Assembly: GCA_964437095.1 (NCBI GenBank)
Contig: CAYTFH010000015.1
Coordinates: 851-64,850 of the forward strand
Direction of reading: 5' to 3'
DNA length: 64,000 nucleotides
Source: an uncultured bacterium
Lineage (GTDB): Bacteria > Sysuimicrobiota > Sysuimicrobiia > Sysuimicrobiales > Sysuimicrobiaceae
Shown: piece by piece, positions 11,211 through 27,214 of the stretch
Numbering within the stretch: the stretch's first letter is position 1
How the letters are laid out: each line of letters begins with the position of its first letter
Program-made: the position numbers and the translations under genes
Notes under the pieces: generated by a model
What the model was told of the DNA's origin: nothing
Seen by the model: only the letters and a program-made list of their open reading frames with translations
Databases searched by the model: none

Positions 11211-11983
11211 CGAGCCAGCCGTTGCGGGGCCGGCGGGTGCTGGTGACCCGCCCGCGCCACCAGGCGGAGGACCTTCGGGCGCGGCTGGAAGCCCTGGGGG
11301 CGGAGGTGTACGCGGTACCCGTGATCCAGATCCTGCCACCCGAAGACCCAGAGCCGCTGAAGCAGGCCGCGGGTCGCCTGGAGAGCTACCGGTGGGTGGT
11401 GTTCACCAGCCGCAACGGGGCTGAGTCCTTCGCCCGCGCGGCGGGCAGGCCCGCCCTGCCCAGCTCCACGCGGGTCGCGTGCATCGGGCCCGCCACCGCG
11501 CGGGCAGTCCGGCAGCTCCTGGGCTGGCCGGTGCACCTGCAGCCGCGGGCGTACGTGGCGGAGGCCCTGGTGGACGCCTTCCGGGAGGCGGGGGTCCAAG
11601 GGGCTGCGGTGCTGCTGGTGCGGGCGCAGGAAGCTCGCGACACCCTCCCGGAGGGGCTGCGGGCGTGGGGTGCGCGGGTGGACGTGGTGGCCGCCTACCG
11701 CACCCTGCCCGCGTACAATGAAGCCGAGCGGCTCCAGGACGTGTTGCGCCGCGGCGTGGACCTGGCGACCTTCGCCAGCCCCTCCGCGGTGCGGGCGGCG
11801 GTGCAGCTGTGCGGGGAGCTGGAGGTGCTGCGGGCCGTCCCCGCGGCGTGCATCGGCCCGGTGACCGCCGCGGCGGCGGAGCACCTGGGCCTTCGGGTGG
11901 TGGCGGTGGCGGAAGACTTCACCCAGCAGGGTTTGGTGGAAGCCGTGGTCCGCACCCTGACGGGAGGGGAGGGAGGACGGTGA
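11198..11983 (+). CDS. hemD: uroporphyrinogen-III synthase
   Basis: RVLVTRP...VVFTSRNG HemD pattern; start overlaps hemC 3' end (GTG at 11198 or 11207). Confidence 0.75.
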   Translation: MAGVASQPLRGRRVLVTRPRHQAEDLRARLEALGAEVYAVPVIQILPPEDPEPLKQAAGRLESYRWVVFTSRNGAESFARAAGRPALPSSTRVACIGPATARAVRQLLGWPVHLQPRAYVAEALVDAFREAGVQGAAVLLVRAQEARDTLPEGLRAWGARVDVVAAYRTLPAYNEAERLQDVLRRGVDLATFASPSAVRAAVQLCGELEVLRAVPAACIGPVTAAAAEHLGLRVVAVAEDFTQQGLVEAVVRTLTGGEGGR

Positions 11984-12963: not shown

Positions 12964-14240
12964 GCCGTTCGGAGGAGCTCTTCCGGCGGGCGCGCCGCGT
13001 GATGCCCGGCGGGGTCAGCAGCCCCGTGCGGGCGTTCCGCGCGGTGGGAGGCACACCGCCGTTCTTGGTCCGGGGCGAGGGCGCGTACGTCACCGACGCG
13101 GACGGCCGGCGGTACGTGGACTGCGTCATGTCCTGGGGCGCCCTGCTGCTGGGCCACGCCCACCCCCAGGTGGTGCAGGCGGCCCAGCACGCGGTGGCGG
13201 AGGGGAGCAGCTTCGGAGCGCCCACCCCGTGGGAGGTGGAGTTCTGCGAGCGGATTCGGGCCGCGGTCCCCTCCGTGGAGGTGGTGCGGCTGGTGAGCTC
13301 GGGCACGGAGGCGGTGATGAGCGCCCTGCGGGTGGCGCGGGCCGCCACGGGCCGCGAAGGGGTGGTGAAGTTCGACGGCGGCTACCACGGCCACGTGGAC
13401 AGCCTCCTGGTGCGGGCGGGCTCGGGGGTTGCCACCTTCGACCTGCCCGACAGCGCCGGAGTGCCTCCTCCCGCGGTGCGGTCCACCTTCTCCCTGCCGT
13501 ACAACGACCTGGACTCCGTGCGCCGCTTCTTCCAGGCGCGGGGGGAGGAGGTGGCGGCGGTGCTGGTGGAGCCCGTGGCGGGCAACATGGGCACGGTTGC
13601 CCCGGAGCCGGGCTTCCTGCAGGGGCTGCGGGAACTTTCGGAGCGGTGGGGTGCCCTGCTGGTGTTCGACGAGGTCATCACCGGGTTCCGCTTCCACTAC
13701 GGCGCGGCCCAAGACCTGTTCGGGGTGCCGCCGGACCTCACGTGCTTGGGGAAGGTCATCGGCGGCGGCTTCCCCCTGGCCGCGTACGGAGGGCGGGAGG
13801 ACCTGATGCGCCTGGTGGCCCCCGACGGCCCCGTCTACCAGGCGGGCACCCTGTCCGGAAACCCCGTGGCGGTGCGGGCGGGGCTCGCCACCCTGGCGGC
13901 ACTGGAAGACGGGGACGTGTACCGGCGGTTGGAAGCATTGGGTCAGGCTCTGGAAGAGGGGCTCCGGGACGCGGCGCGTCAGGCGGGAGTCCCGGCGTGC
14001 GTGAACCGGGTGGGATCCATGCTCACGGTGTTCTTCGGCGTGGAGCGGGTGACGGACTACGACAGCGCGAGGAGGTGCGACACCGCGGCGTTCGCGCGGT
14101 TCTTCCACGCCATGCTGGCCCGGGGCACCTACCTCCCCCCGTCCCCCTTCGAGGCGTGGTTCCTTTCCGCGGCCCACGGAGAGGAAGAAGTCGAGCAGAT
14201 CCTCCGGGCGGCCCGCGAGGCCTTCCGGGAGGCCGCATGA
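12960..14240 (+). CDS. hemL: glutamate-1-semialdehyde 2,1-aminomutase
   Basis: class-III aminotransferase fold, N-terminal MPGGVSSPVRAF; ATGA overlap with hemB. Confidence 0.9.
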   Translation: MSRSEELFRRARRVMPGGVSSPVRAFRAVGGTPPFLVRGEGAYVTDADGRRYVDCVMSWGALLLGHAHPQVVQAAQHAVAEGSSFGAPTPWEVEFCERIRAAVPSVEVVRLVSSGTEAVMSALRVARAATGREGVVKFDGGYHGHVDSLLVRAGSGVATFDLPDSAGVPPPAVRSTFSLPYNDLDSVRRFFQARGEEVAAVLVEPVAGNMGTVAPEPGFLQGLRELSERWGALLVFDEVITGFRFHYGAAQDLFGVPPDLTCLGKVIGGGFPLAAYGGREDLMRLVAPDGPVYQAGTLSGNPVAVRAGLATLAALEDGDVYRRLEALGQALEEGLRDAARQAGVPACVNRVGSMLTVFFGVERVTDYDSARRCDTAAFARFFHAMLARGTYLPPSPFEAWFLSAAHGEEEVEQILRAAREAFREAA

Positions 14241-14974
14241 CCCGCGTCCTGGTGGTCATGCCCCTGTACAACGAGGAGGCCACCCTGCAGGAGGTGCTGG
14301 AAGCGGTGCTGCGGTACGCACCTCCCGGTGCGGACGTGCTGGTGGTGGACGACGGCTCCACGGACCGGTCCGCCGAGATCCTGGCCCGGTTCCCGCAGGT
14401 GCGGGTGATCCGGCACCCCGAAAACCGGGGGTACGGGGCGTCCCTGATCGACGGCTTCCGCTACGCCCTGGAGCACGGCTACGACGTGGTGGTGACCATG
14501 GACTGCGACGCTCAGCACGAACCGTACCTCATCCCCGACCTGCTGAGCGCCCTGGAGGGCGCGGACATCGTGTCCGGGAGCCGCTACCTGCCCGGCTCCT
14601 CTCGAGGCCAGGAACCTCCTCCGGACCGGCTGCGCATCAACCGGGAGGTGACCCAGCGGGTGAACACCCTCACGGGCTACCAGCTCACCGACGCCTTCTG
14701 CGGGTTCAAGGCGTACCGGGCCGAGGCGCTGCGGAAGCTGCAGCTGGACGAGCCGTCGTACGGCATGCCCTTGCAGGTGTGGCTGCAGGCGGCGCGCTGG
14801 GGCTTGCGGGTGCGGGAGATCCCCATCGGCCGCATCTACAAGAACCCCCACCGCCGCTTCTGGGGCGGGCTGGACGACCCCGAGGTGCGGCTCCGGTACT
14901 ACCTGGACGTGCTGGAGCGGGAGGCGGCCCGCTGGCTCCAGCGGGCGGCGCCCTCCGGGGAGGGAGGGCCGTGA
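14237..14974 (+). CDS. family-2 glycosyltransferase (DPM1/GtrB-like)
   Basis: VVDDGSTD and DCD(xQH) GT-A motifs; ATGA overlap with hemL. Confidence 0.8.
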   Translation: MTRVLVVMPLYNEEATLQEVLEAVLRYAPPGADVLVVDDGSTDRSAEILARFPQVRVIRHPENRGYGASLIDGFRYALEHGYDVVVTMDCDAQHEPYLIPDLLSALEGADIVSGSRYLPGSSRGQEPPPDRLRINREVTQRVNTLTGYQLTDAFCGFKAYRAEALRKLQLDEPSYGMPLQVWLQAARWGLRVREIPIGRIYKNPHRRFWGGLDDPEVRLRYYLDVLEREAARWLQRAAPSGEGGP

Positions 14975-15651
14975 AGTCGGTCCTGGTCCTCGCCCCCCAC
15001 CCCGACGACGCGGAGATCGCCATGGGCGGCACCATGGCCGCGCTGGTGGCCCAGGGCTGGCGGGTGGTGGTGTGCGACCTCACGGACGGGGAGCCCACGC
15101 CCGTGGGCACCCCCGAACGCCGTAGGCAGGAAGCCGCCCAGGCCGCCCGCATCCTGGGCGTGGAGCGCCGCATCCTCGACCTGCCCAACCGGTTCCTCCT
15201 GGACGAGGTACAGGCGCGGAAGAAGGTGGCCGCGGTGATCCGGGAGGTGCGGCCGGACTGGCTGTTCGTGCCGTACTGGGAGGACGCCCACCCCGACCAC
15301 GTGCAGGCCGCGTCCCTGTGCGAGGCGGCTCGGTTCTACGCCAAGCTCACCCACACCGACATCCCCGGAGACCCCCACTACCCACGCCGGGTGGTGCACT
15401 TCTTCTCCACCCACTACCGCATGGTCCGCCGTCCGTCCTTCGTGTTCGACATCAGCGACACCCTGGAGCGCAAGATGGAGAGCCTGCGCGCCTACCAGAG
15501 CCAGTTCGGACCGGAGCGGGGGAACTCGTGGGTGCTGGACGCGGTGCGGGACGCCAACCGCTACTTCGGCCGCCTGGTGGGCGTGCAGTACGGCGAGCCC
15601 TTCCTCCTGCGGGAGGAGCTGGGGGTGCGCAGCCTGGAGGCGCTGGTGTGA
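14971..15651 (+). CDS. PIG-L/LmbE family N-acetylglucosaminyl deacetylase
   Basis: APHPDDAEIAMGG zinc-site motif; GTGA overlap with GT2 gene. Confidence 0.8.
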   Translation: MKSVLVLAPHPDDAEIAMGGTMAALVAQGWRVVVCDLTDGEPTPVGTPERRRQEAAQAARILGVERRILDLPNRFLLDEVQARKKVAAVIREVRPDWLFVPYWEDAHPDHVQAASLCEAARFYAKLTHTDIPGDPHYPRRVVHFFSTHYRMVRRPSFVFDISDTLERKMESLRAYQSQFGPERGNSWVLDAVRDANRYFGRLVGVQYGEPFLLREELGVRSLEALV

Positions 15652-17183
15652 CGGACCTGCAAATCCCCACGCGGCACGGGGAGGTGGCGTGCGTCCCGGA
15701 GCTGGGCCGGTGGCTGGAGGTGGCGGAAGCCAACGCCCGGCGGCTGGAGCAGGCGCAGATCCGGGGCCAACCCCTGGGGGCGGTGCGGGCGCAGGCCCGC
15801 CAGGAACTGGTGGCCTGCAGCCGCCAGCTGTTGGGCCGCTGGGGCCTGCCCGCGCCCGAGGTGTCCGCAGGACCGTGGGTGGCCACCGGCCACCAGCCGA
15901 CCCCGTTCCACCCGGGCATCTGGGTGAAGACGTGGGGCGTGGACGCGTGCTGCGCCCGCGGGGCGACGGGCCTGTACGTGGTGGTGGACTCTGACGAGTG
16001 CGAGCGGTGGACGGTGCGGGTCCCGCGGCGGGACGGCTCCCTGCAGGTGGCGGAGCGGGTGCTGGTCTCCTGCGGAGCCGAGGTACCCTTCGAGGCGGCT
16101 CCACCGCCGGAGGAGGCGGCCTGGCGGGGGTTCTGCGCCCAGCTGTCCCAGGACCTGGCAACCCTGCGGCTGCCCGAGCTGGTGGAGCGTCTATCCCGGG
16201 CGGAACGGGCGGGGCTGGAGAGCGTACGGTGCGCTCGGAACCTGGGCGAGTTCGGAGCCGCGCTGCGCAGGCGGCTGGAACTGGGCTGCGGGTCCGTGCG
16301 GTACCTGGAGGTGACCGTGTCGCAACTGGCGGGCACCGGCGCGTTCCGCCACTTCGCGGGCTGGATCGCGCAGCACGCGGAGCGCTTCTGGGAGTGCCAC
16401 AACCGGGCCCTGGACCAGTACCGCCGGGAGGAAGGTCTGAGGTCTGCCGCCCAGCCCTTCCCCAACCTGCGGAAAGAGGGCGACCTGGTGGAGCTGCCCT
16501 TCTGGCTCGTGTGGGGCGGGCGCCGGCGTCCGGTGTGGGCGCAGACGGGGAGGGGTGACCCCGTGCTGGTGTGCGACGGAAGGCCTGTGGGCACGGTTCA
16601 CGACCTGCCCCGGGAGCTGAGGCCGCGGGCCCTGACCCTCACCCTGTTCTTGCGGCTGGTGGTGTGCGACCTGTTCGTTCACGGCCTGGGCGGCGCCCGC
16701 TACGACCGCGTCACGGACCGGGTCATGCACGAGTTTTTCGGCACCCCGCCGCCCCCCTTCGCGGTCCTCACCGCCACCTTCCACCTGCCCCTGGCCCGCC
16801 ACCGGGACCCCCAGGCGGAGTACGCTGCCGCCCACCGGAAGTGGCTGGATCTGCACCACAACCCGGACCGCTACCTGCCCCGGGACGGCGAGGTGGCAGC
16901 ATTGGTGGAGGAAAAGTGGCGGTGCATCCAGGCCCTGAACGCCCCGGACCTGCCCCGCCGCAGCCGCCGGGAGCTCACCCAGCGCATCCGGGCCATCAAC
17001 GATTGCCTCCGGCAGCACCTCCAGGACGTGATCCGCGAGGCGGAAGCGGAGCTTGCGGCGTTGCGCCGCGAGGTGGAAGAGCACCAGGTGGCCACCGACC
17101 GCGGCTACCCGTTCTTCCTGTTCGAGCCCGAGGAGGTGCGGGCGTCCGTGGCGATGGCGGAGGGAGTGCGGTGCGGCCGGTAG
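15648..17183 (+). CDS. hypothetical soluble 511-aa protein, possibly distant BshC-like (speculative)
   Basis: GTG overlapping LmbE stop; coiled-coil C-terminus; weak GHQP...HPG resemblance to BshC GGQQ region; no TM segments. Confidence 0.5.
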   Translation: MTDLQIPTRHGEVACVPELGRWLEVAEANARRLEQAQIRGQPLGAVRAQARQELVACSRQLLGRWGLPAPEVSAGPWVATGHQPTPFHPGIWVKTWGVDACCARGATGLYVVVDSDECERWTVRVPRRDGSLQVAERVLVSCGAEVPFEAAPPPEEAAWRGFCAQLSQDLATLRLPELVERLSRAERAGLESVRCARNLGEFGAALRRRLELGCGSVRYLEVTVSQLAGTGAFRHFAGWIAQHAERFWECHNRALDQYRREEGLRSAAQPFPNLRKEGDLVELPFWLVWGGRRRPVWAQTGRGDPVLVCDGRPVGTVHDLPRELRPRALTLTLFLRLVVCDLFVHGLGGARYDRVTDRVMHEFFGTPPPPFAVLTATFHLPLARHRDPQAEYAAAHRKWLDLHHNPDRYLPRDGEVAALVEEKWRCIQALNAPDLPRRSRRELTQRIRAINDCLRQHLQDVIREAEAELAALRREVEEHQVATDRGYPFFLFEPEEVRASVAMAEGVRCGR

Positions 17184-17848
17184 ACCCCGTGGTCACGGAG
17201 GGCCTGGGACGTCGCTTCGGCCCCGTGGTGGCTCTCGAGAACGTGTGGCTGCGGGTCCACCAGGGCCAGGGCTTGCTGCTGGTGGGGCCCAACGGCTCGG
17301 GCAAGACCACCCTGCTGCGGGTGCTGGCCACCGCCTTGCGGCCCAGCCCGGGAAGGGCGTGGGTCTGCGGGTACGACGTGACTTCCGAGGGCCACCGGGT
17401 GCGGGAGGTCTGCGCGTACCTGGGTACTTCCCCGGGCCTGTACGGGGCCCTCACGGGGTGGGAGAACCTCTGCCTGGCCGCGGACCTGTGCGGCCGGCCC
17501 CGCGCCGCGGCCCGGGACGCGCTGGCGTGGGCCGGCATGGAGTCGGTGGCGGGTAGGCCCGTGGGGACGTACAGCCTGGGAATGCGGCGGCGGCTGGCGC
17601 TGGCCCGGGTGTACCTACAGCAGGCCCGCGTGCTGCTGCTGGACGAGCCCTTCGTGGGCCTGGACGACCCGGGCGTGCGCCTGGTGCGGGAACTCGTGGA
17701 AGACACAAAGCGCCGTGGCGGCGCCGTGGTGCTGGCCACCCACGACCGGGACCGGGCCCTCGGACTGTGCGAGGCCGTGGCGGAGCTGCAGTCGGGCCGT
17801 CTGCGACCCGCCCTTGCGGGTTTGGCCGCGGTGAGGGCCGAGCGGTGA
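17171..17848 (+). CDS. ccmA: haem exporter ATPase CcmA (ABC)
   Basis: Walker A GPNGSGKTT; degenerate signature YSLGMRRRLALAR; followed by ccmBCDE. Confidence 0.8.
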   Translation: MRPVDPVVTEGLGRRFGPVVALENVWLRVHQGQGLLLVGPNGSGKTTLLRVLATALRPSPGRAWVCGYDVTSEGHRVREVCAYLGTSPGLYGALTGWENLCLAADLCGRPRAAARDALAWAGMESVAGRPVGTYSLGMRRRLALARVYLQQARVLLLDEPFVGLDDPGVRLVRELVEDTKRRGGAVVLATHDRDRALGLCEAVAELQSGRLRPALAGLAAVRAER

Positions 17849-18498
17849 GGGCGTGGCGGCGGGCGGTGGCCCTGGCCCGCAAGGATCTGCTGCTGGAGTG
17901 GCGGGTGCGGGACGCCCTGCTGCCCGCGGGCACCTTCGGCCTTGCGGTGCTGCTGGTGCTGGGCTTGGCCTCCGGCGGAGGCCCCGAGGCCGCGGCACCC
18001 GTGCTGTGGGTGTCCGTGTCCTTGGCCGCGGTGCTGGCCGTGGGCCGCACCACCGAACGGGAAGGGGAAGAGGGGACCTTGGAGGCGCTGCTGTTGTACC
18101 CGGGAAGCCGGGAAGACCTGTTCTGGGGCAAGTGGATGGCCCTGGCGAGCCTGGTGGCGCTGCTGGCCGCGGCCCTGTGGTGCGCGCAGGCGGTCTTGTT
18201 CGGCGCGGGCGTGCGGGCGTGGGGACCCTTCGCCCTCACCGTCCTGCTGGCCGCGTCGGGCCTGGGGGCGGTGGGCACCTTGCTGGCGGCGGTGCTGTGG
18301 AGCGTGCGGGCTTCCCGCCTGTTGCTGCCCCTGTTGTTCCTGCCCACGGCGCTGCCGGTGCTGCTGGCGGGCGTGCGCCTCACGGAGGCCGCGTCGCTGG
18401 GGGCCCCCTCGGGCCCCTGGCTGGGGGTGCTGGCCGCGTTCGACCTTCTGTTCTTGCTGGTGGGACCCGCGCTGTTCGAGGCGGTGGTGGAGGGCTAA
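17845..18498 (+). CDS. ccmB: haem exporter membrane protein CcmB
   Basis: 6-TM ABC-2 permease at the ccmB position; GTGA overlap with ccmA. Confidence 0.75.
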   Translation: MRAWRRAVALARKDLLLEWRVRDALLPAGTFGLAVLLVLGLASGGGPEAAAPVLWVSVSLAAVLAVGRTTEREGEEGTLEALLLYPGSREDLFWGKWMALASLVALLAAALWCAQAVLFGAGVRAWGPFALTVLLAASGLGAVGTLLAAVLWSVRASRLLLPLLFLPTALPVLLAGVRLTEAASLGAPSGPWLGVLAAFDLLFLLVGPALFEAVVEG

Positions 18499-19137
18499 GT
18501 GAGAGCGTTCCTGACCGGCGGGACCATGGCCCTGCTGTGCGCGGGGCTGTTCCTGGGCCTGTGGGCGTCCCCGCCGGACGCGTACCAGGGAGAGTACGTG
18601 CGGATCATGTACGTGCACGTGCCCGCCGCCCTGGCCGCGTACGCCGCGGCGGCGGTGGCGTGCGCCACCGGAGCCCTGTACCTGTGGCGGCGGCGGGTAG
18701 ACTACGACCTCGTGTCGCACGCGGGTGCGGAGCTAGCGGCGTTGTTCAGCGCGCTGACGTTGCTCACGGGGATGCTGTGGGGAAGGCCCGTGTGGGGGGT
18801 CTGGTGGGCCTGGGACGCGCGCCTGGTGAGCACCGCGGTGCTGTTCTTCCTGTACGTGGGGTCGCTGCTGGTGCGGGGGCTGGCGGAGGACCCCGACCGC
18901 GGGCGCAGGCTCGGCGCGGCGGTGGCGGTGGTGGCGTTCCTGGACGTCCCCCTGGTGCACTACTCGGTGGTGTGGTTCCGCACCCTGCACCAGGGGCCTT
19001 CCATCAGCCTGCAGGGTGTGAGGATCGCGCCCGAACTCCTCCTGCCGCTCTCGGTGAACGTGGTGGCCTACCTGAGCCTGCTCAGCTGGCTGCTCGTGGA
19101 GCGCAGCCGCCTCGCTCGGGCGGAGGCACAACCGTGA
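18499..19137 (+). CDS. ccmC: haem exporter protein CcmC
   Basis: WWD domain WGVWWAWDARL plus conserved His-containing loops. Confidence 0.85.
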   Translation: MRAFLTGGTMALLCAGLFLGLWASPPDAYQGEYVRIMYVHVPAALAAYAAAAVACATGALYLWRRRVDYDLVSHAGAELAALFSALTLLTGMLWGRPVWGVWWAWDARLVSTAVLFFLYVGSLLVRGLAEDPDRGRRLGAAVAVVAFLDVPLVHYSVVWFRTLHQGPSISLQGVRIAPELLLPLSVNVVAYLSLLSWLLVERSRLARAEAQP

Positions 19138-19262
19138 GCCCATGGGTGTGGGTGGCGTCCGCTTACGGGTGCGCGGCCCTGCTGGTGGGCGGATACGTGT
19201 GGTGGCTGCGGCGCAGGCTGCGCCGCGCCGCCTCGCGCGGGAACCAGGAGGTGGAGGGGTGA
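19134..19262 (+). CDS. ccmD: haem exporter protein CcmD (42 aa)
   Basis: single TM plus RRRLRR tail; GTGA overlaps at both ends. Confidence 0.6.
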   Translation: MSPWVWVASAYGCAALLVGGYVWWLRRRLRRAASRGNQEVEG

Positions 19263-19642
19263 AGCGTCTGCGCCTGGTGGCTGCGGTGGCGGTGGTGGTG
19301 GGCGCCCTGGGCTACGTGGTGGCCGGTGGCCTGCGGGAGTCGGTGGTGTACTACGTCACCCCCACGGAGCTGCGCTCCGGCAGCGTGGACGTGCGTCGGC
19401 CCGTGCGGGTGGGAGGGCAGGTGGTACCCGGGTCCCTCCACCGGGACGGCGGCACGGGGGAGCTGCGCTTCGTCCTCTCCGACGGCCGCACCACCCTGCC
19501 CGTGCGGTTCCGCGGGGACGTGGCGGGGCTGTTGGTCCAAGGTCAGGGTGCGGTGGTGGAGGGCCGGCTGGACCCGGACGGATCCTTACGGGCCCACACG
19601 GTGGTGGTCAAGCACTCCGAGGAGTACCGGCCGCCGCGCTAG
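19259..19642 (+). CDS. ccmE: cytochrome c maturation haem chaperone CcmE
   Basis: N-terminal TM, OB-fold, C-terminal VKHSEEY haem-binding His/Tyr motif. Confidence 0.8.
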   Translation: MKRLRLVAAVAVVVGALGYVVAGGLRESVVYYVTPTELRSGSVDVRRPVRVGGQVVPGSLHRDGGTGELRFVLSDGRTTLPVRFRGDVAGLLVQGQGAVVEGRLDPDGSLRAHTVVVKHSEEYRPPR

Positions 19643-19800
19643 CGGCTTGACGCGGGGGCAGTCCGGTGCGGAAAATCGTGGCCGGACCTTCACGGCGGGG
19701 GCCCGGCGGGGCCCTTGCGCGTTTTTCGGGCTCGCGAGAGAGGAGTCCGGGTCCCGGAAGTCAAAAACACACGCCGAGTTCACGGGTTTCAGGAGGCACC

Positions 19801-20700
19801 TTGCGCCGACGCCAAGCCGGGCCCCTGTGCGGCCGGCGGCCCCGCGCGGCGGGCCCCGGCGGGTTGCTGCTGGTGGCCGTCCTGTTCCTGGCGGGCTGCC
19901 AGCCCTACGTCCGCGTCAGCACTGCGGCCCGGGAGGCCTACCAGCCCCTGGAGGGGTTCGCGGTGCGCATGAACTTCATGCCCCGTAAGCCCGACGCGGA
20001 CGCGGGCAAGAAGATCTACGAAGCCCGCTGCGCCGTCTGCCACGGGCCGGAAGGGCGCGGGGACGGCCCCATGGCCCAGCAGCTCACCGCGCCGGAGAAG
20101 AACCCGTACACGGACTTTCTGAGCCTGTTCCGGATCCACCCGAAGACGGAACCCCTGCCGAGCCGTCCCGCGCGGTTCAACAACCTGGACCAGATGCGGC
20201 TGAACGCGCCCTTTGCCATGTTCGAGACCATCGCCCGGGGCCGGCCCCACACCGCCATGCCGGGGTTCCAGCACCCCGCCTACGGGGCCGTGGACGGGGG
20301 CGAGCCGAGGTTGTCCGACCAGGAGATCTGGGGCGTGCTGTTCTGGGAGTGGAGCCGGACCACCAGCCGTGAGCGCCTGGCACAGGGGCGGCGGATCTAC
20401 AACGAGATGTGCGCCAGCTGCCATGGGGTCCGCGGCGACGGCAACGGCCCGGAGGCCGCGAAGATCCGGGAGGAAGTGTGGACGTGGGCGCGGGGCGTGG
20501 GCCCCGGTATTTTCACCGACCGGGACTGGATGGCGTACCGTAAGCCCACGGAGCTGTACCAGAAGGTGGCCGAAGGGGTCCGGCGCCGCGGGCTGGAGCT
20601 CATGCCCGCGTACGCGGACAAGCTCACCCCGGACCAGATCTGGACCGTGGTAGAGTACCTGTGGACGTTCGTGTACACGCCTCCCCGGGAGATGCGGTAG
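19801..20700 (+). CDS. dihaem cytochrome c lipoprotein
   Basis: two CxxCH motifs (CAVCHG, CASCHG); lipobox LAGC; TTG start after AGGAGG (alternative ATG at 19666). Confidence 0.75.
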   Translation: MRRRQAGPLCGRRPRAAGPGGLLLVAVLFLAGCQPYVRVSTAAREAYQPLEGFAVRMNFMPRKPDADAGKKIYEARCAVCHGPEGRGDGPMAQQLTAPEKNPYTDFLSLFRIHPKTEPLPSRPARFNNLDQMRLNAPFAMFETIARGRPHTAMPGFQHPAYGAVDGGEPRLSDQEIWGVLFWEWSRTTSRERLAQGRRIYNEMCASCHGVRGDGNGPEAAKIREEVWTWARGVGPGIFTDRDWMAYRKPTELYQKVAEGVRRRGLELMPAYADKLTPDQIWTVVEYLWTFVYTPPREMR

Positions 20701-20719: not shown

Positions 20720-21364
20720 GTGAACCGGAGGACGTTCCTCAAGCTCCTGAGCGCAGTGCCCGCGTTGGGGGCCCTGGGCGCGTTCCTGGCCCCGGTGCTG
20801 CGGTACCTCAAGCCGAACCTGGAAGCCGGCTTGGGCGTCCCCAAGGGTAAGGTGGTGCCGGACCTGGCCGAGGGCGACCTCCCCAAGGGGGAAGCCCTGC
20901 CCATCGCCACCCTGGAGGAGCTGCGGGAGCCGTGGTCCAGCAAGTTCTTCGTGTTCACGCAGAAGTACCCCCAGTACACGCCCGAGCAGGCGAAGGCGGC
21001 TACGGTACCCGGGGTGGCCGTCAAGCTGCCGTGGAAGCTGTCGTTCCCGGGCTACAAGGGGGGCAAGGAGCCCACGGACATCGTGGTCTTCTCCCGCATC
21101 TGTCCGCACCTGGGCTGCATCTTCAACTACGTGCCCAACTGGCGGGAGGTGACCGCGGGCTACGGCGGGTACGTGCCGCCGGAGGACCGCCGCCACGGGC
21201 TGATGGCCTGCCCGTGCCACCTGTCCATCTATGACCCCGCGGACCGGGAACTGCCCGGTCGGGTGCTGTCGGGCCCCGCGCCCCGCCCGCCCCGGTTCTT
21301 CACCTACGAGATCCGCGACGGGGTCATCGTGGTGACCGGCGCGGAGCCCGGCGGGATCGCCTGA
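20720..21364 (+). CDS. Rieske [2Fe-2S] subunit of a cytochrome bc/b6f-type complex
   Basis: Tat motif RRTFLK; CPHLGC...CPCHLS Rieske boxes. Confidence 0.9.
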   Translation: MNRRTFLKLLSAVPALGALGAFLAPVLRYLKPNLEAGLGVPKGKVVPDLAEGDLPKGEALPIATLEELREPWSSKFFVFTQKYPQYTPEQAKAATVPGVAVKLPWKLSFPGYKGGKEPTDIVVFSRICPHLGCIFNYVPNWREVTAGYGGYVPPEDRRHGLMACPCHLSIYDPADRELPGRVLSGPAPRPPRFFTYEIRDGVIVVTGAEPGGIA

Positions 21365-21376
21365 GGGGGCTTCGGG

Positions 21377-22525
21377 ATGTGGGACCGGCTGCGGGAGTGG
21401 TTCCGGGAGCGCAAGGAGAAGCTGGACCTGTTCGACGAGACCCGCGTGGACCGGCAGGACAACCCCCTCTACATCCTCGGGCAGATCGTGTACTTCTCCT
21501 GGATCGCGGTGGTGGTGAGCGGCATCCTGCTCATGATCTGGTACGAGCCCACCGCCCACGGCGCGTACAACTCCATCCTCCGGATCCAGCGGGAGATCCC
21601 CTTCGGCTGGCTCATCCGCGGCGTCCACAAGTACGGCGCGGACATGCTCATCCTGGCCATCACCCTCCGCATCTACCGGATGTACTTCCTCGGCGAGTAC
21701 AAGCGGCCCCACGAGCTGTCGTGGATGATCCTGTTCGGGTCCCTGGTCCTGGCCATGATCTCCGGCCTCACGGGCTACCTGCTCATCTGGAACCAGCGGG
21801 CCTTCTGGGCCGCCAAGGTGGTGCTCACCGTGGCGGTGTACCTGGACCAGTTGCCCCTGGTCGGCCAGACGCGGTTCGGCAGCGCCATCGCCTTCGCCTT
21901 CCTCGGTGGGCCCGCGGAGGGGCAGGGGACCCTCACCCGCTTCTACGCCATCCACTTCGGCATCTCCGCCCTGTTGCTGGTGGCCACGGAGGTGTACTTC
22001 TACTTCACCCGTAGGCGCCGGTTCGTGCTGTCGCCTGCGGCCCTGGTGATCCTCGCCCTCATGCTGGTGGTCACCAGCTACGTGTTCCCCGCGGAGATGG
22101 GCCGGCGCGCCGATCCCAACCGCACCCCGCTGCCCATCCTGTCGGACTGGTACTTCCTGGCCCTGTACCAGTACGTGAAGTACACCCCGCCCCTGTGGGC
22201 GGGCCTGGGGCCGGGCCTGCTCATCGCGTACGGCATGCTGGTCCCGTTCCTGGACCGCAGCAAGGGCCGCCGGCCCTCGGAGCGGCCCTTCTTCACCGTG
22301 GTGGGCGTGATGGCCCTCACCTACTTCCTGGTGTTTACCGCCCTGATCATGTTCAACATCGCGGTGATCGGCCGGGACCCGCACGTGGTGCTGCTGGTCA
22401 CCGCGGCCACCCTGACCTTGGGCCTGGCGCTGGAGCTGCGCTACCGGAAGCGCAGGAAGCTGGCGGAGGCCGCCGCTCCATCTCCCGCGCCGCGGCCCGC
22501 CCCGGCCCGGGCCACGGCGGGGTGA
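21377..22525 (+). CDS. cytochrome b (b6 fused to subunit IV), atypical: n-side haem ligands absent
   Basis: [14 protein letters not shown] and TLTRFYAIH align to PetB, but the second His of each pair is Arg and Tyr; SDWYF subunit-IV motif. Confidence 0.85.
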   Translation: [382 protein letters not shown]

Positions 22526-22529
22526 AGCG

Positions 22530-22793
22530 GTGGACGTGGCCCGGTTCGCTGCGTCCTTTCTGGCCGCGGTGCTGAGCCTGCACGAGACCGTGCGGGCCCT
22601 CCGGGGGGCGTGGCTGCACCCGGCGCCCGATCGGTGGCTGCTGGCGGCGGGCTGGCTGGTCCTGGCAGCGGCCTCCGGGCTGTGGGCGGGGTACGTGGTG
22701 TACGCGGCGGACCGCCGGTCCGGACGCGTCCGCCGCCGGGTGGCTCTGTACGAACGGTGGATGGCGGCGCAGCGGGGAGGGAGGTGGCCGTGA
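22530..22793 (+). CDS. small two-TM membrane protein (possible bc-complex small subunit)
   Basis: GTG start 5 nt after cyt b stop; two hydrophobic helices. Confidence 0.45.
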   Translation: MDVARFAASFLAAVLSLHETVRALRGAWLHPAPDRWLLAAGWLVLAAASGLWAGYVVYAADRRSGRVRRRVALYERWMAAQRGGRWP

Positions 22794-22984
22794 ACGGACC
22801 CGGCCGGTACCTGGCCCTGGCGGGCTTCCTGGCGGCGGTGGGCCTGGTGTGCGTGGCCCTCATGGTGTACGGCGAGTGGACCGACCGGCGCCTGGTGGCC
22901 TCCGGCGCCGTGGGCGTGCTCCTGGTGCTGTACGCGGCCATCGTGGTCCTGTTCCGGAAGGCGCACCTGACCGCGGAGGAGTGA
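22790..22984 (+). CDS. small two-TM membrane protein (64 aa)
   Basis: GTGA overlap with preceding ORF, GGGGAGGGAGG RBS; two TM helices. Confidence 0.45.
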   Translation: MNGPGRYLALAGFLAAVGLVCVALMVYGEWTDRRLVASGAVGVLLVLYAAIVVLFRKAHLTAEE

Positions 22985-22985
22985 G

Positions 22986-24161
22986 GTGTACCGGCGGATC
23001 CTGAGGGGACTGCAGAGCGCCACCCTGCGGGTGGACGTGTGGATCAACGGGGTCCTGCCGCAGGATTTCAACCCCCTGTACTACACGGGCGGTCTGAGCA
23101 ACCTGTTCCTGACCATCCTGGTGGTCTCCGGGATCCTCATCTTCCTGTACTACGAGCCCAGCCTGGAGGGGGCGTACGCCTCCGTGGAGTTCCTGACCCG
23201 GGACGTGCCCTACGGGGTGGTGTTCCGCGGCATCCACCGGTACGCCGCGGACGCCTACCTGGTGGCCATCCTCCTGCACCTGTTCCGGAACTGGTTCACC
23301 GACCGCTACCGGGAGGCCCGGGACAGCCAGTGGCTGTCGGGGATGTTCCTCCTGGTGGTGTCGGCCTTCACGGGCTTCACCGGGTACCTACTGGTGTGGG
23401 ACGAGCGGGCGCAGCTGCTGAGTAGCCTCACGGTGCAGGCCCTGCGGTCGGTGCCCCTGGTCGGGCCCTGGCTGGCCCAGGTGTTCCTGGGCGGCCCGGG
23501 GGTGAGCGACACCACCCTGCCGCGCTTCCTCTTCCTGCACATCGGGCCGGCCATGACCCTGTACGTGCTCCTGTGGTGGCACTACGTCCGGCTGCGCCAC
23601 CCCAAGATCTGGCCGCCCGCGGTGTGGGTCCTGTTCAGCCTGGGATTGCTGTTCATCCTGGCGTCCGCCCTGCCTGCGGCCAGCGGCCGGCCCGCGCAGC
23701 CCGGCGCTTCCCCCGAGGGGTTCCCGGTGGACTGGTTCTTCCTGTGGCCGTACGTGCTGGCCCGTTGGATGGCCCCGGGTTGGGCCCTGGCCCTGGTGGC
23801 GGCCCTGGTGGCGTACGGCATGGTGATCCCCTACACCCTGCGGGAGACCCCGGAGGAACGGGAGGTGCGGGCCCTGGGGCAGGCGGTGGTGGTGGAGGAG
23901 AACTGCACCGGCTGCGATCTGTGCTACTACGACTGCCCGTACAACGCCATCTACATGGTGCCCAGCCCCTACCCGGGCAAGAGCCGGGCCGCGGCCAACC
24001 GCAAGCTGCTGGCCGTGGTGGTGGACTCCCGGTGCGTGGAGTGCGGCATCTGCATCGGCGCATGCCCCTTCGAGGCTCTGGAACTTCCGAGGATGTTGGA
24101 CAAGGACGTGCAGGAACGCATCCGGCGGGGGGCCCAGGCACCGGCCCCCGCCACCCCGTGA
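22986..24161 (+). CDS. cytochrome b (b6 + subunit IV-like) fused to a C-terminal 2x[4Fe-4S] ferredoxin domain
   Basis: all four haem His retained (IHRYAADAYLVAILLH; LHIGPAMTLYVLLWWH); CTGCDLCYYDCP and CVECGICIGACP motifs. Confidence 0.85.
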   Translation: MYRRILRGLQSATLRVDVWINGVLPQDFNPLYYTGGLSNLFLTILVVSGILIFLYYEPSLEGAYASVEFLTRDVPYGVVFRGIHRYAADAYLVAILLHLFRNWFTDRYREARDSQWLSGMFLLVVSAFTGFTGYLLVWDERAQLLSSLTVQALRSVPLVGPWLAQVFLGGPGVSDTTLPRFLFLHIGPAMTLYVLLWWHYVRLRHPKIWPPAVWVLFSLGLLFILASALPAASGRPAQPGASPEGFPVDWFFLWPYVLARWMAPGWALALVAALVAYGMVIPYTLRETPEEREVRALGQAVVVEENCTGCDLCYYDCPYNAIYMVPSPYPGKSRAAANRKLLAVVVDSRCVECGICIGACPFEALELPRMLDKDVQERIRRGAQAPAPATP

Positions 24162-24170
24162 GGCAGGACC

Positions 24171-24596
24171 ATGGCCACCGTACCGGAGCGAACTCCCAGC
24201 CCTGACAGCCCGCCCCGGGTGGTGGGTTTCCTGTGCGACTGGGCGGTGCGCAGCGAGGGATTGCTGAACCCCGACGACACCCTGGTGGGCATGCCTCACG
24301 TGACCGTGATCCGGGTGCCGTGTTCGGGGTTCGTGAAGCCCAGCTGGCTGGAGCTGGCCCTCCGCAGCGGCGCCGCGGGGACCTTCGTGTGCGGTTGCCC
24401 CATGGGGGACTGCCTGAACCGGGAGGGCAACTGGATCATCGAGGACCGCATCGACCAGCTCCGCAAGCGGCTCAGCCGTCAGAAGGTGGACCCCGATCGG
24501 GTGGCCTTCTTCGCCTACGGCCTGCACGACCGGGAAGCCTTCCTGCAAGCGGTGGCGGAGTTCGTGGAGCGGCTGCGGTCGGGAGGGAAGCGGTGA
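24171..24596 (+). CDS. MvhD/FlpD-like iron-sulfur protein (hydrogenase delta-subunit family), standalone
   Basis: FLCDW...VIRVPCSG...VCGCPMGDCLNREGN matches the FlpD Cys pattern (5 of 6 Cys). Confidence 0.75.
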   Translation: MATVPERTPSPDSPPRVVGFLCDWAVRSEGLLNPDDTLVGMPHVTVIRVPCSGFVKPSWLELALRSGAAGTFVCGCPMGDCLNREGNWIIEDRIDQLRKRLSRQKVDPDRVAFFAYGLHDREAFLQAVAEFVERLRSGGKR

Positions 24597-24709
24597 CGCG
24601 GTTTGGCCCCAAGCGGTGGAGGACGTACCTGTGGTACGCGGTGTTCTACCTCCTGTTCTTCGCCCTGTTGCTGTTCGTGGCGGCCTTCGGCCTGGTGGCG
24701 GAGGCGTAG
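24593..24709 (+). CDS. 38-aa single-TM peptide (FixQ/CcoQ-like position)
   Basis: GTGA overlap with MvhD-like stop; YLWYAVFYLLFFALLLFVAAFGLV helix; directly precedes CcoN-like gene. Confidence 0.4.
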   Translation: MTRFGPKRWRTYLWYAVFYLLFFALLLFVAAFGLVAEA

Positions 24710-24723
24710 GCCCGGAGGGACGG

Positions 24724-26115
24724 ATGCTGGTGTGGATGTTCACGGACGAGCGGTGGAGTTCCGCCCGGCGCTTCCTGTACACGGGCGCCCTGTGGGGACT
24801 CGTGGCCCTGGCGTACGAGGTCCTGGTGGCCCTGCAGCGAGCCTGGCCCCAGCTGCTGGCGGACGTCCCCTGGGCTGCGCACGGGCGGGCGGTGGCGGCG
24901 GCCCACGACCTGTGGGTGTACGGGGTCCTCTCGAGCTTGCTGGTGGGAGCCGCCCTTCGGGTGGTGGGCCAGGGCGACCGGGAGGGGCTGTGGAGCGAGC
25001 CGCTGGCGAACCTGAGCGTCTGGCTGTGGAACCTGGCCCAGGTGTTGGGCTGGTGGTGGTTGTCCGTGGGCTGGACCCGGGGCCGGCCGGGGGCCGAAGC
25101 GCCCTGGCCGGTGGACCTGCTGCGGCTTGCGGCGGGGCTGCTGCTGCTGTGGGTGGTCCGCAGGACCCTCGCCCGCAATCCCCGCCGGGAGCCGGGGCTC
25201 GCCCTCCTCGCGGTCGCCTTCACCGCCTTCCCCTTGGTGCTGGTGCTCGGCAAGGGGCTGTTCTGGCCCTTCGACAACCCGTACCGGGGGGTCGTGGACG
25301 CCCTGGCGCAGGCCTTCCTGCGGGCGGGCTTGGTGTGGCTGTGGCTGGCGCCCCTGGCCAGCGGGGTTTCCCTGTACGTCCTGGCAGCCTTGGGCGGACG
25401 TCCGGGGCTGTCGGAGGGGCTGGGGATGGCCGCGGTGACGGGTTTTGCGGGGTTCGGCGCCCTCGCGGGCCCCTCGGCCTTCGTGTGGGGCCCGATCCTC
25501 TTCTGGGTGCAGACCCTGGGTGCGGTGGCGCAGGCCCTGTTGCTGCTGCCGGTGGCCACCGTGCTGACCGGTGCGGTGCGGTCCCTGGAGGGGAGCTGGC
25601 ACGGGCCCGGTGACCACCCCGGGGTGGCCCTGGTGCTGGCGGGGCTTGTGGCCGTGTTGTGCGGCGCCGCCGCCTCTGCGCTCGCCTCCGTGGCGGGCCC
25701 CAGCCGGGTCATCCACCTTTCCGCCTGGCTGGAGGGAACCAGAGCCCTGACGGTGGGCGGTCTGAGCGCGGTGGCGGCGGGGTGCACGTACCTGCTGACC
25801 CCGCACGTCCTGGGGCGGGCCCTGGCCAGCAGGAGCCTGGCGTGGCGGCACCTGTGGCTCGTGGTGGGTGGCTGGGCGGTGGGCGTTCCCGCGCTGCTGC
25901 TGGCGGGGTTGAGCCAGGGAGCGGTGTGGGCCACGGGCACGGTCCCCTTCGCCCACTCCGTGGAGGCCGCGCGGCCCCTGCTGGCGGCGGGCGTGACGTG
26001 GGCAGTGCTCGGGTGGGTCGGACAGGCGGTGTTCGCGTGGAACCTGTTCCTGACCGCGGACTCAGGGGAGCCGGTGCCCGCGGCGGAGCAGGAGCTGGCG
26101 CCCGTGGCGGGCTAG
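24724..26115 (+). CDS. cbb3-type oxidase subunit I (CcoN) homologue lacking the CuB/high-spin haem His ligands
   Basis: N-terminus ALQRAWP...PWAAHGRAVAAAHDLWVYG aligns to CcoN helix I-II; 12-TM hydrophobicity; no HH pair anywhere; WWYGHN region is WWWLSV. Confidence 0.7.
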   Translation: MLVWMFTDERWSSARRFLYTGALWGLVALAYEVLVALQRAWPQLLADVPWAAHGRAVAAAHDLWVYGVLSSLLVGAALRVVGQGDREGLWSEPLANLSVWLWNLAQVLGWWWLSVGWTRGRPGAEAPWPVDLLRLAAGLLLLWVVRRTLARNPRREPGLALLAVAFTAFPLVLVLGKGLFWPFDNPYRGVVDALAQAFLRAGLVWLWLAPLASGVSLYVLAALGGRPGLSEGLGMAAVTGFAGFGALAGPSAFVWGPILFWVQTLGAVAQALLLLPVATVLTGAVRSLEGSWHGPGDHPGVALVLAGLVAVLCGAAASALASVAGPSRVIHLSAWLEGTRALTVGGLSAVAAGCTYLLTPHVLGRALASRSLAWRHLWLVVGGWAVGVPALLLAGLSQGAVWATGTVPFAHSVEAARPLLAAGVTWAVLGWVGQAVFAWNLFLTADSGEPVPAAEQELAPVAG

Positions 26116-26125: not shown

Positions 26126-26587
26126 GTGAGGGACCCTGTGATCCCTGTGGTGCGGTTCGTGGTGGCCGCGGTGCTGTGCGGTTTTCTGGCCACGGTGCTG
26201 CTGCCGAGGCTGGACCCCGCCGTCCGACCCGCCCGCGCTGCGCCCCTCGGGCCGCAGATCCAGCGGGGCCGGTGGGTGTACGTCCGTGAGGGCTGTGTGG
26301 CCTGCCACACCCAGCAGGTGCGGGCGGTGGAGGCCCGGTTCGGGGTGGTGCGGGGTCAAGGGGACGTGGGAGAAGCTTCCGGGCCCGCCCAGTACGCGGG
26401 ACAGAACCCCGTTCTGCTGGGGTCCTTGCGGCTGGGCCCGGACCTATCCCACGTGGGGGCCCGCAGCCAGGACCCCAACCAGCTGCGGTCGTTGCTGCGG
26501 TCCGGCAGCGTGGGGATGCCGCCGGTCCGGTACCTTTCGGAGTCCGAGCTGTCGGACCTGGTGGCGTACCTGTTAAGCCTGCGCTAG
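26126..26587 (+). CDS. cbb3-type oxidase subunit II (CcoO/FixO)-like monohaem cytochrome c
   Basis: VYVREGCVACHTQQVR and RLGPDLSHVG match CcoO signatures. Confidence 0.8.
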   Translation: MRDPVIPVVRFVVAAVLCGFLATVLLPRLDPAVRPARAAPLGPQIQRGRWVYVREGCVACHTQQVRAVEARFGVVRGQGDVGEASGPAQYAGQNPVLLGSLRLGPDLSHVGARSQDPNQLRSLLRSGSVGMPPVRYLSESELSDLVAYLLSLR

Positions 26588-26674: not shown

Positions 26675-27214
26675 ATGGCGGAGCAGGCCCAGACCGTCCG
26701 TCCCTCTCGGTGGCTGCTGGCCCTGTACGTCCTGCTGCCCCTGTGGGCCGTGGCGTACCTGTTCGTGGCGGGAGGCCTGGTGCAGCCGGAAGTTCAGCCC
26801 GTGGCCCGCACCGTGGAGGGGGTCTCCGTGGGAGCCGGGCCCGTGGTGGACGACCCCGAGCACGTCATGGGCATCCTGGCGGTGGTCCCCGAGGACGCCC
26901 GGGACGACCGGCCGCCGCGGCCCATGACCGAGGCCATGCTGGCCCAGGCCAAGACCCAGTACGACACCCTGTGCGCCGTGTGCCACGGTCCGGAGGGCCG
27001 GGGCGACGGGCCCGCGGGCGCGGCGCTGAACCCCAAGCCCATGAACTTCCACTACCGGTCCTTCCAGGAGCGCATGCCCGTGGGCGCCACCCACTGGGTG
27101 ATCAAGAACGGCCTCGGCAACACCCCGCGGCGCAGCGGCATGCCCGCCTTCGGCCAGCTGCCCGACGACCAGATCTGGGCCCTGGTGGAGTACGTGCGCC
27201 GGCTGGGCCGCTAA
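26675..27214 (+). CDS. membrane-anchored monohaem cytochrome c
   Basis: N-terminal TM, CAVCHG, distal Met (SGMPAF); AGGAGG RBS. Confidence 0.8.
   Translation: MAEQAQTVRPSRWLLALYVLLPLWAVAYLFVAGGLVQPEVQPVARTVEGVSVGAGPVVDDPEHVMGILAVVPEDARDDRPPRPMTEAMLAQAKTQYDTLCAVCHGPEGRGDGPAGAALNPKPMNFHYRSFQERMPVGATHWVIKNGLGNTPRRSGMPAFGQLPDDQIWALVEYVRRLGR

Follow-up and report, generated by a model that had tools for sequence, protein, structure and literature searches.

The b1 gene and its cluster

We analysed a 64,000-nucleotide (nt) stretch of DNA, hereafter the window (G+C content 72%), from a member of Candidatus Sysuimicrobiota, a phylum (formerly CSP1-3 or 'Armatimonadetes') known from hot-spring metagenome-assembled genomes (MAGs). 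Its plus-strand open reading frame (ORF) at 21377-22525 encodes a cytochrome b of 382 amino acids, designated b1, which retains the ligands of the p-side haem (bp or bL) only, both histidine ligands of the n-side haem (bn or bH) having been replaced. The gene lies in a cluster transcribed entirely from the plus strand, with gaps of 1-20 nt between the genes. In order, the cluster holds cytochrome c maturation (ccm) genes, a di-haem cytochrome c, a Rieske protein, b1, two small membrane proteins, a second cytochrome b (designated b2), a FlpD-type protein, a CcoN homologue, a CcoO/FixO-like cytochrome c and a further cytochrome c.

The b1 protein matches the Pfam families Cytochrome_B (PF00033; 5e-31, 108 bits against a cut-off of 27.2) and Cytochrom_B_C (PF00032; 1.5e-7, 32 bits, cut-off 20.7). 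Its PDB matches, obtained with phmmer, are cytochrome b6 and the cytochrome b chains of bc1 complexes, the best with an E-value of 1.5e-34. The AlphaFold2 (AF2) model, with a predicted local distance difference test score (pLDDT) of 82, has eight transmembrane (TM) helices, and its top Foldseek match is bc1 cytochrome b (TM-score 0.67). We are thus dealing with a fused eight-helix protein and not with a split b6 and subunit IV. The ligand positions of helix D (H193 and residue 207) are spaced by 14 residues, as in bc1. The position of b6 Cys35, the carrier of haem cn, is occupied by I33 in b1 and by Ile or Leu in the family, and the CxGG motif is absent. The Rieske gene, with its CPHLGC and CPCH boxes, lies 12 nt upstream of b1.

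Replacement of the n-side haem ligands

The b1 sequence was aligned in three ways: by phmmer with the PDB, by MAFFT with 150 representatives, and by MAFFT with 86 genomic loci from Sysuimicrobiota (the phylum of the window), Armatimonadota, Symbiobacterium, Anaerolineae and Melainabacteria. We also used a set of 121 close homologues (identity at least 66%) and a comparison set of 116 representatives of canonical cytochromes b.

Five histidines are present in b1, at positions 61, 84, 112, 193 and 336. H84 in helix B (codon CAC, 21626-21628) and H193 in helix D (21953-21955) align with the bp ligands, and both are invariant in the 86 loci. The bn ligand positions are taken by R98 in helix B (CGC, 21668-21670) and by Y207 in helix D (TAC, 21995-21997), the latter within the triplet E205-V206-Y207 (21989-21997). 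At position 98, arginine was found in 85 of the 86 loci and lysine in the remaining one, while all 116 canonical representatives have histidine; among the close homologues R98 is present in 121 of 121. Residue 207 varies over the 86 loci (Phe 40, Tyr 28, Leu 12, His 4, Met 1, Trp 1). E205 is specific to the clade and present in all 86 loci. The 121 close homologues give the same picture, with H84, H193, R98 and E205 invariant or nearly so and Phe, Leu or Tyr at position 207.

An earlier interpretation made from the DNA letters alone (the sequence-only reading) had aligned this protein residue-for-residue with b6. According to it, the first histidine of each pair was kept, the second was replaced by Arg in helix B and Tyr in helix D, and Ile stood in place of Cys35. 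We reproduced that alignment with HMMER against spinach b6, where the helix-D segment EVYFY lies opposite LMHFL, and the MAFFT alignments agree. The two retained histidines and I33 were likewise recovered. The arginine proved to be fixed across the homologues (once as lysine). The tyrosine is correct for the window and is not a conserved replacement.

Could the missing ligands be an artefact of alignment? The three independent alignments agree, and the motif H-x13-[H/R]-x2-R is invariant and anchors the placement, so the assignment of R98 and Y207 is not an alignment accident. Alternative ligands were also considered. The remaining histidines H61, H112 and H336 are not conserved among the 121 close homologues, and the same alignments revealed no conserved substitute His, Met, Cys or Lys ligand in the n-side half of the family. 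Tyr207 was rejected as a new axial ligand of the family, the position being mostly Phe or Leu.

Further n-side haem features of b1 are relaxed as well. Invariant over the 86 loci are H84, H193, R101, E205, G35, G49 and G133, among which Gly49 and Gly133 belong to the p-side. In helix C, the n-side Gly119, which is glycine in at least 80% of the 116 canonical sequences, is replaced by Ala, Leu, Ser or Phe or kept as Gly within the b1 clade. Compared with the canonical set, the clade shows the change H98R, the loss of Gly119 and of the PRE Arg, the replacement of prolines 137 and 197, and the gain of E205. The features of the quinol-oxidation (Qo) site are constant in the clade: the cd1 helix WNQRAFWA, which is canonical-like, helices E-H, and the motif SDWY (S256-D257-W258-Y259; 22142-22153). 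The motif is invariant in the 86 loci, the canonical representatives having P-[ED]-W-Y, and it carries Asp at the position of Glu272, as PDWY enzymes do.

On this evidence b1 very probably binds haem bp only. A second haem or another n-side cofactor could in principle be held by non-histidine contacts (Tyr or, in some members, His at position 207, water, or an Arg-propionate pair), in the manner of haem cn, which has no axial ligand from the protein. Gly35, the n-side haem-accommodating glycine of helix A, is invariant, as are R101 and R212; a new site could be organised by Glu205 and Arg98, which occur jointly. Against such a cofactor, position 207 is Phe or Leu in most members, Gly119 is lost, and a cysteine for covalent attachment is missing (I33, no CxGG). 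Moreover, we know of no non-covalent b haem without any axial ligand in the cytochrome b fold. We therefore regard a second cofactor in b1 as very improbable.

A further feature of the n-side is the invariant acidic motif L-D-L-F-D-E-T (b1 residues 16-22) in the N-terminal amphipathic helix, with D17, F19, D20 and E21 present clade-wide. Judged from its sequence, this motif could be a docking surface for a cytoplasmic Fe-S domain or for FlpD.

Spread and selection of the b1 family

Among 1.84 billion cluster representatives, b1 and its relatives form a sharply delimited clade comprising some 25 clusters (33-55% identity), every one with Arg (once Lys) at the helix-B position. The next matches beyond the clade are canonical cytochromes b with all four histidines. 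In a species scan with one genome per species, 305 of 333 pattern-matching stretches encode a b1 relative, the best matches being 94-96% identical. The distant members include Symbiobacterium thermophilum (51% identity) and representatives of Fimbriimonadaceae, Anaerolineae and Melainabacteria/Vampirovibrionales (43-49%). Some members are longer than b1, and their C-terminal or internal extensions contain neither a Pfam domain nor a CxxCH motif.

The ratio of nonsynonymous to synonymous substitution rates (dN/dS) of b1 is 0.05-0.12, the lowest in the cluster. The loss of the n-side ligands is a family trait under strong purifying selection. A decaying, non-functional duplicate or an assembly or sequencing error would be an easy explanation at the DNA level, as CAC to CGC (His to Arg) and CAC to TAC (His to Tyr) are each a single-nucleotide change. 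However, the same residues recur in hundreds of independent assemblies, the species scan yielded 305 stretches encoding a relative, and dN/dS is low, as given above. Conservation and selection effectively refute a pseudogene or sequencing error, and we find decay or error as the source of the b1 sequence hardly credible. With the ligand loss family-wide and selected, and with no conserved substitute ligand, the most likely reading is indeed a mono-haem cytochrome b that would be unable to run a Q cycle alone, as the sequence-only reading had predicted.

A separate cytochrome b family, represented by P0204 (L086, 7550-9110) and P0237, also has arginine in helix B, keeps the helix-D histidine and carries a PPWY motif. 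The neighbours of P0204 are a Rieske gene, multihaem cytochromes c and Ni_hydr_CYTB-type cytochromes b, which makes it a different system from b1. As P0204 and P0237 carry Arg at the helix-B n-side position, the His-to-Arg change seems to have arisen more than once.

Co-occurrence of b2 and FlpD with b1

The second cytochrome b of the cluster, b2 (22986-24161, plus strand), is a paralogue of b1 with helices A-F followed by a domain for two [4Fe-4S] clusters. It matches the Pfam Cytochrome_B and Fer4 families; its best PDB match is cytochrome b6 (6e-28), and it is 33% identical to b1 over b1 residues 15-303. All four haem ligands are present in b2 (H84, H98, H185 and H199), invariant in 20 homologues and conserved to at least 95% in 75 loci. 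Their spacing is 14 residues in both helix B and helix D, the cysteine of a CxGG motif is absent, and the n-side Gly and Arg are kept. Helices G and H are missing, the cd1 helix departs from the canonical form, and the motif equivalent to PEWY has kept its Asp as the sole conserved residue. b2 is complementary to b1, the n-side haem features being found in b2 and the Qo features in b1.

At the C-terminus of b2 stand two CxxCxxCxxxCP motifs (Cys307/310/313/317 and Cys350/353/356/360), which are invariant; the predicted topology places this Fer4 domain on the cytoplasmic side (n-side). A strongly conserved n-side D-E loop, H-Y-x-R-x-R-H-P-K-x-W-P-P-x-x-W (b2 residues 199-214), follows the helix-D bn ligand. 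Going by its sequence, the loop could be a quinone site or an electron-transfer contact to the first [4Fe-4S] cluster.

The gene after b2 encodes a cytoplasmic [2Fe-2S] protein of the MvhD/FlpD type (24171-24596, plus strand; Pfam FlpD PF02662, 1e-24, 87 bits; PDB 5odc_D, which is MvhD from the Hdr-Mvh complex, 6e-15). The cluster ligands predicted from its sequence, Cys22, 51, 76 and 81, are conserved in 73 loci. The Fer4 domain of b2 and FlpD, in this order, match residues 571-777 of HdrA2, its last 200 residues.

We examined the linkage of these genes by tblastn of the window proteins against 85 related loci. In all 74 loci that extend past b1, b2 lies directly downstream; in the other 11 of the 85 loci, which lack b2, the sequence stops no more than about 1 kb from b1. 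The combination of b2, Fer4 and FlpD was found in 72 of the 72 loci reaching far enough, covering at least five phyla. Further members of the b1 family at 44-49% identity (L091, L092) have the same gene order, and the b1/b2/FlpD cluster is also present in a MAG assigned to Symbiobacterium thermophilum. The sequence-only reading had placed b1 in an otherwise intact Rieske/cytochrome b operon. This description has to be abandoned, given the second, four-histidine cytochrome b with its two [4Fe-4S] clusters, the MvhD/FlpD protein and a CcoN homologue without metal ligands (see below).

A second operon type

The most distant cytochromes b of the Arg98/Glu205 type, P0141 and P0143, are 36% identical to b1 and carry a charged insertion of 290 residues in the A-B loop. 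They belong to a second operon type (L088, 946-8471; L089, 3053-10578). Its gene order is Rieske, b2-like protein with Fe-S domain, FlpD, an Fe-S protein, a HydB/ShyB/AsrA-like [4Fe-4S] protein, a HydG/ShyC/AsrB-like FAD/NAD(P)-binding [2Fe-2S] protein, the b1-type cytochrome and two small membrane proteins. The operon contains neither a c-type cytochrome nor an oxidase. Box II of its Rieske protein reads CRCHDGVF and has no Ser/Tyr pair; the b2-like protein of L088 keeps the four histidines, with most of the cd (Qo) region deleted.

Despite the reshuffled order, in which the Rieske gene stands beside b2 and b1 comes after both, the genes for Rieske, b1, b2 and FlpD stay grouped. The HydG/AsrB-like subunit of this set indicates that, in at least one branch, the b2/FlpD wire terminates in the cytoplasm at an NAD(P)(H) flavoprotein.

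Other genes of the cluster

Following FlpD, the cluster encodes a homologue of CcoN, subunit I of the cbb3 haem-copper oxidase (24616-26115, plus strand; PDB 3mk7_A, 7e-24). The metal centres of CcoN employ six histidines (for haem b, haem b3 and CuB) and a cross-linked tyrosine. All seven residues are lost in the window protein: P. stutzeri H60, H207, Y251, H257, H258, H345 and H347 correspond to Ala, Ala, Gly, Ser, Ala, a gap and Arg. The close relatives L004-L012, L014 and L067 show the same loss, the Symbiobacterium copy is partly degenerate, and the copies of Melainabacteria and Fimbriimonadaceae keep 7 of 7 residues. The ORF in the window is nevertheless intact, with a dN/dS of 0.23-0.35 and 139 invariant columns, many of them Trp or Gly; within its lineage, one histidine alone is invariant. 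This CcoN homologue gives the impression of a scaffold devoid of cofactors and not of a pseudogene.

The Rieske [2Fe-2S] protein upstream of b1 (20720-21364, plus strand) has weak Pfam matches to the twin-arginine translocation (TAT) signal and Rieske families. Its boxes, CPHLGC (residues 128-133) and CPCHLSIY (164-171), are kept in 82 loci, in which the Ser of box II is at least 95% and the Tyr at least 75% conserved. Such a Ser/Tyr pair raises the midpoint potential in the Rieske proteins of bc1/b6f and of anammox bacteria (PMC12954380) and typifies the high-potential type; the window protein carries both residues.

Directly upstream of the Rieske gene, in the window as in related loci, lies the gene for a di-haem c-type cytochrome (19666-20700, plus strand; two Pfam Cytochrom_C matches; CAVCH at 122 and CASCH at 249), a probable lipoprotein judged from its LFLAGC lipobox. 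Translation probably starts further downstream than the listed GTG at 19666. Between ccmE and this gene, at 19647-19718, lies a match to a sigma-70-like promoter (TTGACG-18-GAAAAT), and after it comes a hairpin, rich in G+C and accompanied by a T tract.

Every annotated relative has two small genes between b1 and b2. In the window, the first (22530-22793, plus strand) encodes a membrane protein of 87 amino acids without a Pfam match; relatives have a gene of the same size in the same place (33-66% identity by tblastn). The second (22784-22984, plus strand; about 66 amino acids, two hydrophobic helices) was given a start inferred from a GGAGG just upstream. The CcoN homologue is followed by a CcoO/FixO-like mono-haem cytochrome c (26126-26587, plus strand; Pfam FixO; CxxCH motif CVACH) and a mono-haem, membrane-anchored cytochrome c (26675-27214, plus strand; identified by Pfam; CxxCH motif CAVCH). 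No protein of the cluster reached a curated NCBIfam cut-off.

Gene content around the core differs in L001-L003, more distant Sysuimicrobiota with 68% identity, which have no CcoN/CcoO genes and encode a cupredoxin after FlpD; their upstream ccm genes are interspersed with cytochrome P460 and another cupredoxin. The difference suggests that the b1/b2 core passes its electrons to another acceptor in these relatives.

The ccmB, ccmC, (ccmD) and ccmE genes for cytochrome c maturation occupy 17767-19642 on the plus strand (Pfam Cytochrom_C_asm at 18499-19137; CcmA/B/C/E are annotated in the 93%-identical locus L004). They close a longer region upstream of the complex (9016-19642) with hemA (9016-10302), hemD (10817-11983), hemL (12849-14240), hemB (by synteny with L004) and ccmABCDE, set in a chromosomal core with RuvAB, SpoIID, MreBCD, PBP2, RNase G and AlaRS. 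The hem/ccm/complex region is a haem/respiration island and not a mobile element.

A proposed mechanism

With the ligand loss, the retained p-side and Qo features, the purifying selection, the strict co-occurrence of b1 and b2 and the cofactor motifs of b2 and FlpD in hand, we propose that b1 is a functional mono-haem (bp) cytochrome b working through b2, a reading to which we assign a probability of roughly 0.55. The absence of the n-side haem, the heterodimer, and the path and direction of the electrons are what we infer from the sequences. In such a complex, b1 would keep a Qo site for quinol oxidation served by the adjacent Rieske protein, and would have neither an n-side haem nor a quinone-reducing Qi site. 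The two cytochromes b would be part of a single complex, in the simplest case a b1:b2 heterodimer formed through the normal cytochrome b dimer interface.

Quinol would be oxidised at the Qo site of b1, from which one electron would pass to the Rieske protein, the c-type cytochromes and a terminal acceptor. The second electron would move from bp of b1 to bp of b2, then to bn of b2 and on to the cytoplasmic side, where the two [4Fe-4S] clusters of b2 and the [2Fe-2S] cluster of the MvhD-like protein would take it up in turn. Removal of the n-side haem from the subunit with the Qo site would keep this electron from short-circuiting back to the quinone pool.

The bp-bp step has a basis in known enzymes. 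In bc1 and b6f complexes, the bL/bp haems are the sole cofactor pair of the two monomers close enough for electron exchange (PMC7908018). Cross-inactivated bc1 dimers, with no bH in one half and no Qo in the other, turn over through this bL-bL bridge on the millisecond, catalytic timescale (PMC4330944; PMC7908018). Since a b1 homodimer would leave the bp electron without an exit, the heterodimer with b2 would supply one. More tentatively, the heterodimer may be an obligate natural one, in which all low-potential electrons cross from bp to bp and are exported to a cytoplasmic acceptor instead of quinone. The acceptor might then be NAD(P)+ in the L088 type and ferredoxin or another partner in the window, a suggestion we make with the same reserve.

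Several observations weigh against this proposal. Low-potential Fe-S clusters would have to be reduced by quinol against the membrane potential, at a high energetic cost. No gene for a cytoplasmic acceptor enzyme was found after FlpD in the window operon, nor any conserved partner gene at this place in L004, L091, L092 and the clean, low-GC loci of Melainabacteria. The AF2 model of b2 is unreliable (pLDDT 49), with six TM helices in its secondary structure. In b1, the n-side residues Gly35 (helix A), R101 and R212 have stayed invariant, R101 being the arginine to which, in canonical enzymes, a bH propionate is bound; their retention leaves room for a cofactor bound in a non-canonical way. A few members of the clade also keep histidine at position 207.

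The two cytochromes b might instead act separately. A b1 homodimer with the Rieske protein and cytochrome c would then be a non-bifurcating quinol:cytochrome c oxidoreductase that sends both electrons through the Rieske protein, with bp as a structural element or safety valve, and b2-Fer4-FlpD would be a distinct module linked to quinone, an Fe-S oxidoreductase anchored in the membrane after the DsrMK/HdrDE logic, that shares the operon. The b2-Fer4 protein does resemble the small cytochrome b anchoring a cytoplasmic oxidoreductase that was discussed by Dibrova et al. (PMC5600118). The b1-b2 contact is deduced rather than directly evidenced, and b2, with its helices E-F and the conserved Asp at the PEWY position, might bind quinol itself. 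However, b1 and b2 are strictly linked across phyla and in two gene orders. In addition, a bp haem would stall or leak if it had no exit, b1 has the Qo architecture of a classical bifurcating enzyme, and bc1 monomers with a bH knockout show essentially no activity except by way of the bL-bL bridge (PMC4330944). We consider separate action of b1 and b2 unlikely.

A second alternative keeps the b1/b2 complex and reverses the wire. A reductant at the level of ferredoxin or NAD(P)H would feed FlpD, the Fer4 domain and bn of b2, quinone would be reduced at a Qi-like site, and the complex would carry out an asymmetric Q cycle fed additionally by a dehydrogenase. Inward flow is thermodynamically downhill and energetically easier; the n-side D-E loop of b2 could form the quinone site, and the NAD(P)-binding module of L088 could equally be an NAD(P)H dehydrogenase. 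Yet inward flow leaves the loss of the bn haem and Qi site from b1 unexplained. A block of n-side quinone reduction is what anammox workers name as the key need of outward bifurcation (PMC12954380), and the state of b1 matches such a block. Inward flow thus appears quite unlikely to us, and the outward direction of the b1:b2 proposal is favoured because the loss of the n-side haem in the Qo subunit would avoid re-reduction of quinone. The Rieske protein of the window, moreover, carries the Ser/Tyr pair linked to high potential.

Implications

The b1 clade is widespread (the 305 stretches of the species scan, at least five phyla), and it includes the Melainabacteria 'complex III/IV' used in arguments on the origin of aerobic respiration. 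Provided that b1 is mono-haem and pairs with b2, the complexes that carry a bc1 or b6f annotation in these organisms run no textbook Q cycle, and both their proton-to-electron (H+/e-) yield and their role have to be re-assessed. What the bL-bL bridge means physiologically 'remains unclear' (PMC7908018). An obligate heterodimer, if real, would give this long-debated inter-monomer bridge a physiological role and would be the natural counterpart of the cross-inactivated dimer that was engineered to prove bL-bL transfer.

Should the proposal hold, it would also represent a simple way for a bifurcating Rieske/cytochrome b complex to avoid n-side quinone reduction while feeding cytoplasmic Fe-S and NAD(P) modules, and a second, mechanistically cleaner case of quinone-based bifurcation making cytoplasmic reducing power. 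Symbiobacterium thermophilum is cultivable, and the occurrence of the cluster in a MAG assigned to this species makes the b1:b2 idea experimentally testable.

Comparison with known systems

We found no earlier description of the b1 clade in the literature searched, only generic mentions, and an earlier mention is possible. The description of Sysuimicrobiota does not contain the terms complex III, cytochrome b, Rieske, bc1 or cbb3 (PMC11604079). The Melainabacteria operon has been noticed as petB/petC beside a type-C haem-copper oxidase, as 'complex III/IV' and as b6f subunits (PMC6349859); the passages of that article that were searched do not mention missing ligands, a second cytochrome b, an Fe-S fusion or FlpD. 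These loci (L074-L085; 43-47% identity to b1) are of the same family and operon type as the window, with the order CcoN-CcoO/c-cytochrome c-Rieske-b1-b2Fer4-FlpD. They differ in their oxidase, which keeps all the ligands that the window CcoN has lost.

Natural loss of n-side histidines has precedents, so that 'very unusual', the term of the sequence-only reading, is fair as a description and does not mean unique. Kao and Hunte treated the four histidines as invariable and removed sequences lacking any of them, noting only Pyrobaculum, which lacks the fourth (PMC4122944). The discarding of such sequences in large surveys (PMC4122944) may explain why the b1 clade has gone unremarked. Dibrova et al. 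described the cyanobacterial PetB-like subfamily K, with Glu or Gln for the helix-2 histidine, and a clade G' found in large operons to which no function is assigned (PMC5600118). Pyrobaculum and subfamily K resemble b1 in the natural loss of one n-side histidine and in a suspected loss of the haem. They belong to other lineages and have other substitutions, and no b2-Fer4/FlpD partner has been described for them, whereas b1 has lost both ligands and its partner is constant.

Compared with the canonical cytochrome b of bc1 and b6f, b1 has the same fold, Pfam families, bp ligands, p-side glycines, cd1 helix and position of the Qo motif in the ef loop, and the neighbouring gene likewise encodes a Rieske protein whose boxes are CxHxGC and CxCH. 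It differs in lacking two of the four 'invariant' histidines and the n-side glycine of helix C, and in its SDWY motif. As the b1 complex is encoded together with a second, different cytochrome b, it would not be the usual homodimer of identical Q-cycle units.

The cytoplasmic part of the system recalls the electron-bifurcating Hdr-Mvh complexes. FlpD, with its conserved cysteines, is homologous to MvhD, and b2-Fer4 together with FlpD matches the C-terminal part of HdrA2. Unlike Hdr-Mvh, the window operon has no HdrA flavoprotein, HdrBC or hydrogenase, and the module sits on a membrane cytochrome b.

The NAD(P)-linked complexes of anammox bacteria (Kuste4569-4574 and Kustd1480-1485; PMC12954380) likewise combine a Rieske/cytochrome b core with a cytoplasmic Fe-S chain. 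The high-potential type of Rieske protein is shared with the window and the FAD/NAD(P) subunit only with L088/L089; the window operon has neither an FAD/NAD(P)-binding subunit nor multihaem c subunits. The anammox proposal shares with the b1/b2 model the delivery of low-potential electrons to the cytoplasm by quinol bifurcation (PMC12954380). The anammox complexes differ in having a four-histidine b6 and subunit IV with haem cn, as well as multihaem c subunits, and in lacking a second cytochrome b and MvhD. How n-side quinone reduction is prevented in them is the main unsolved problem (PMC12954380).

The closest mechanistic parallel to the proposed b1:b2 pair is found in the engineered cross-inactivated bc1 dimers (B-B and BS-B fusions; Czapla et al. 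2013, PMC4330944), in which one half has the Qo site without an n-side route of its own and the other half supplies the route. Those dimers are laboratory point mutants of identical subunits. In contrast, b1 and b2 are products of two natural paralogous genes, and in their case the contact is deduced and the asymmetry would be ancient.

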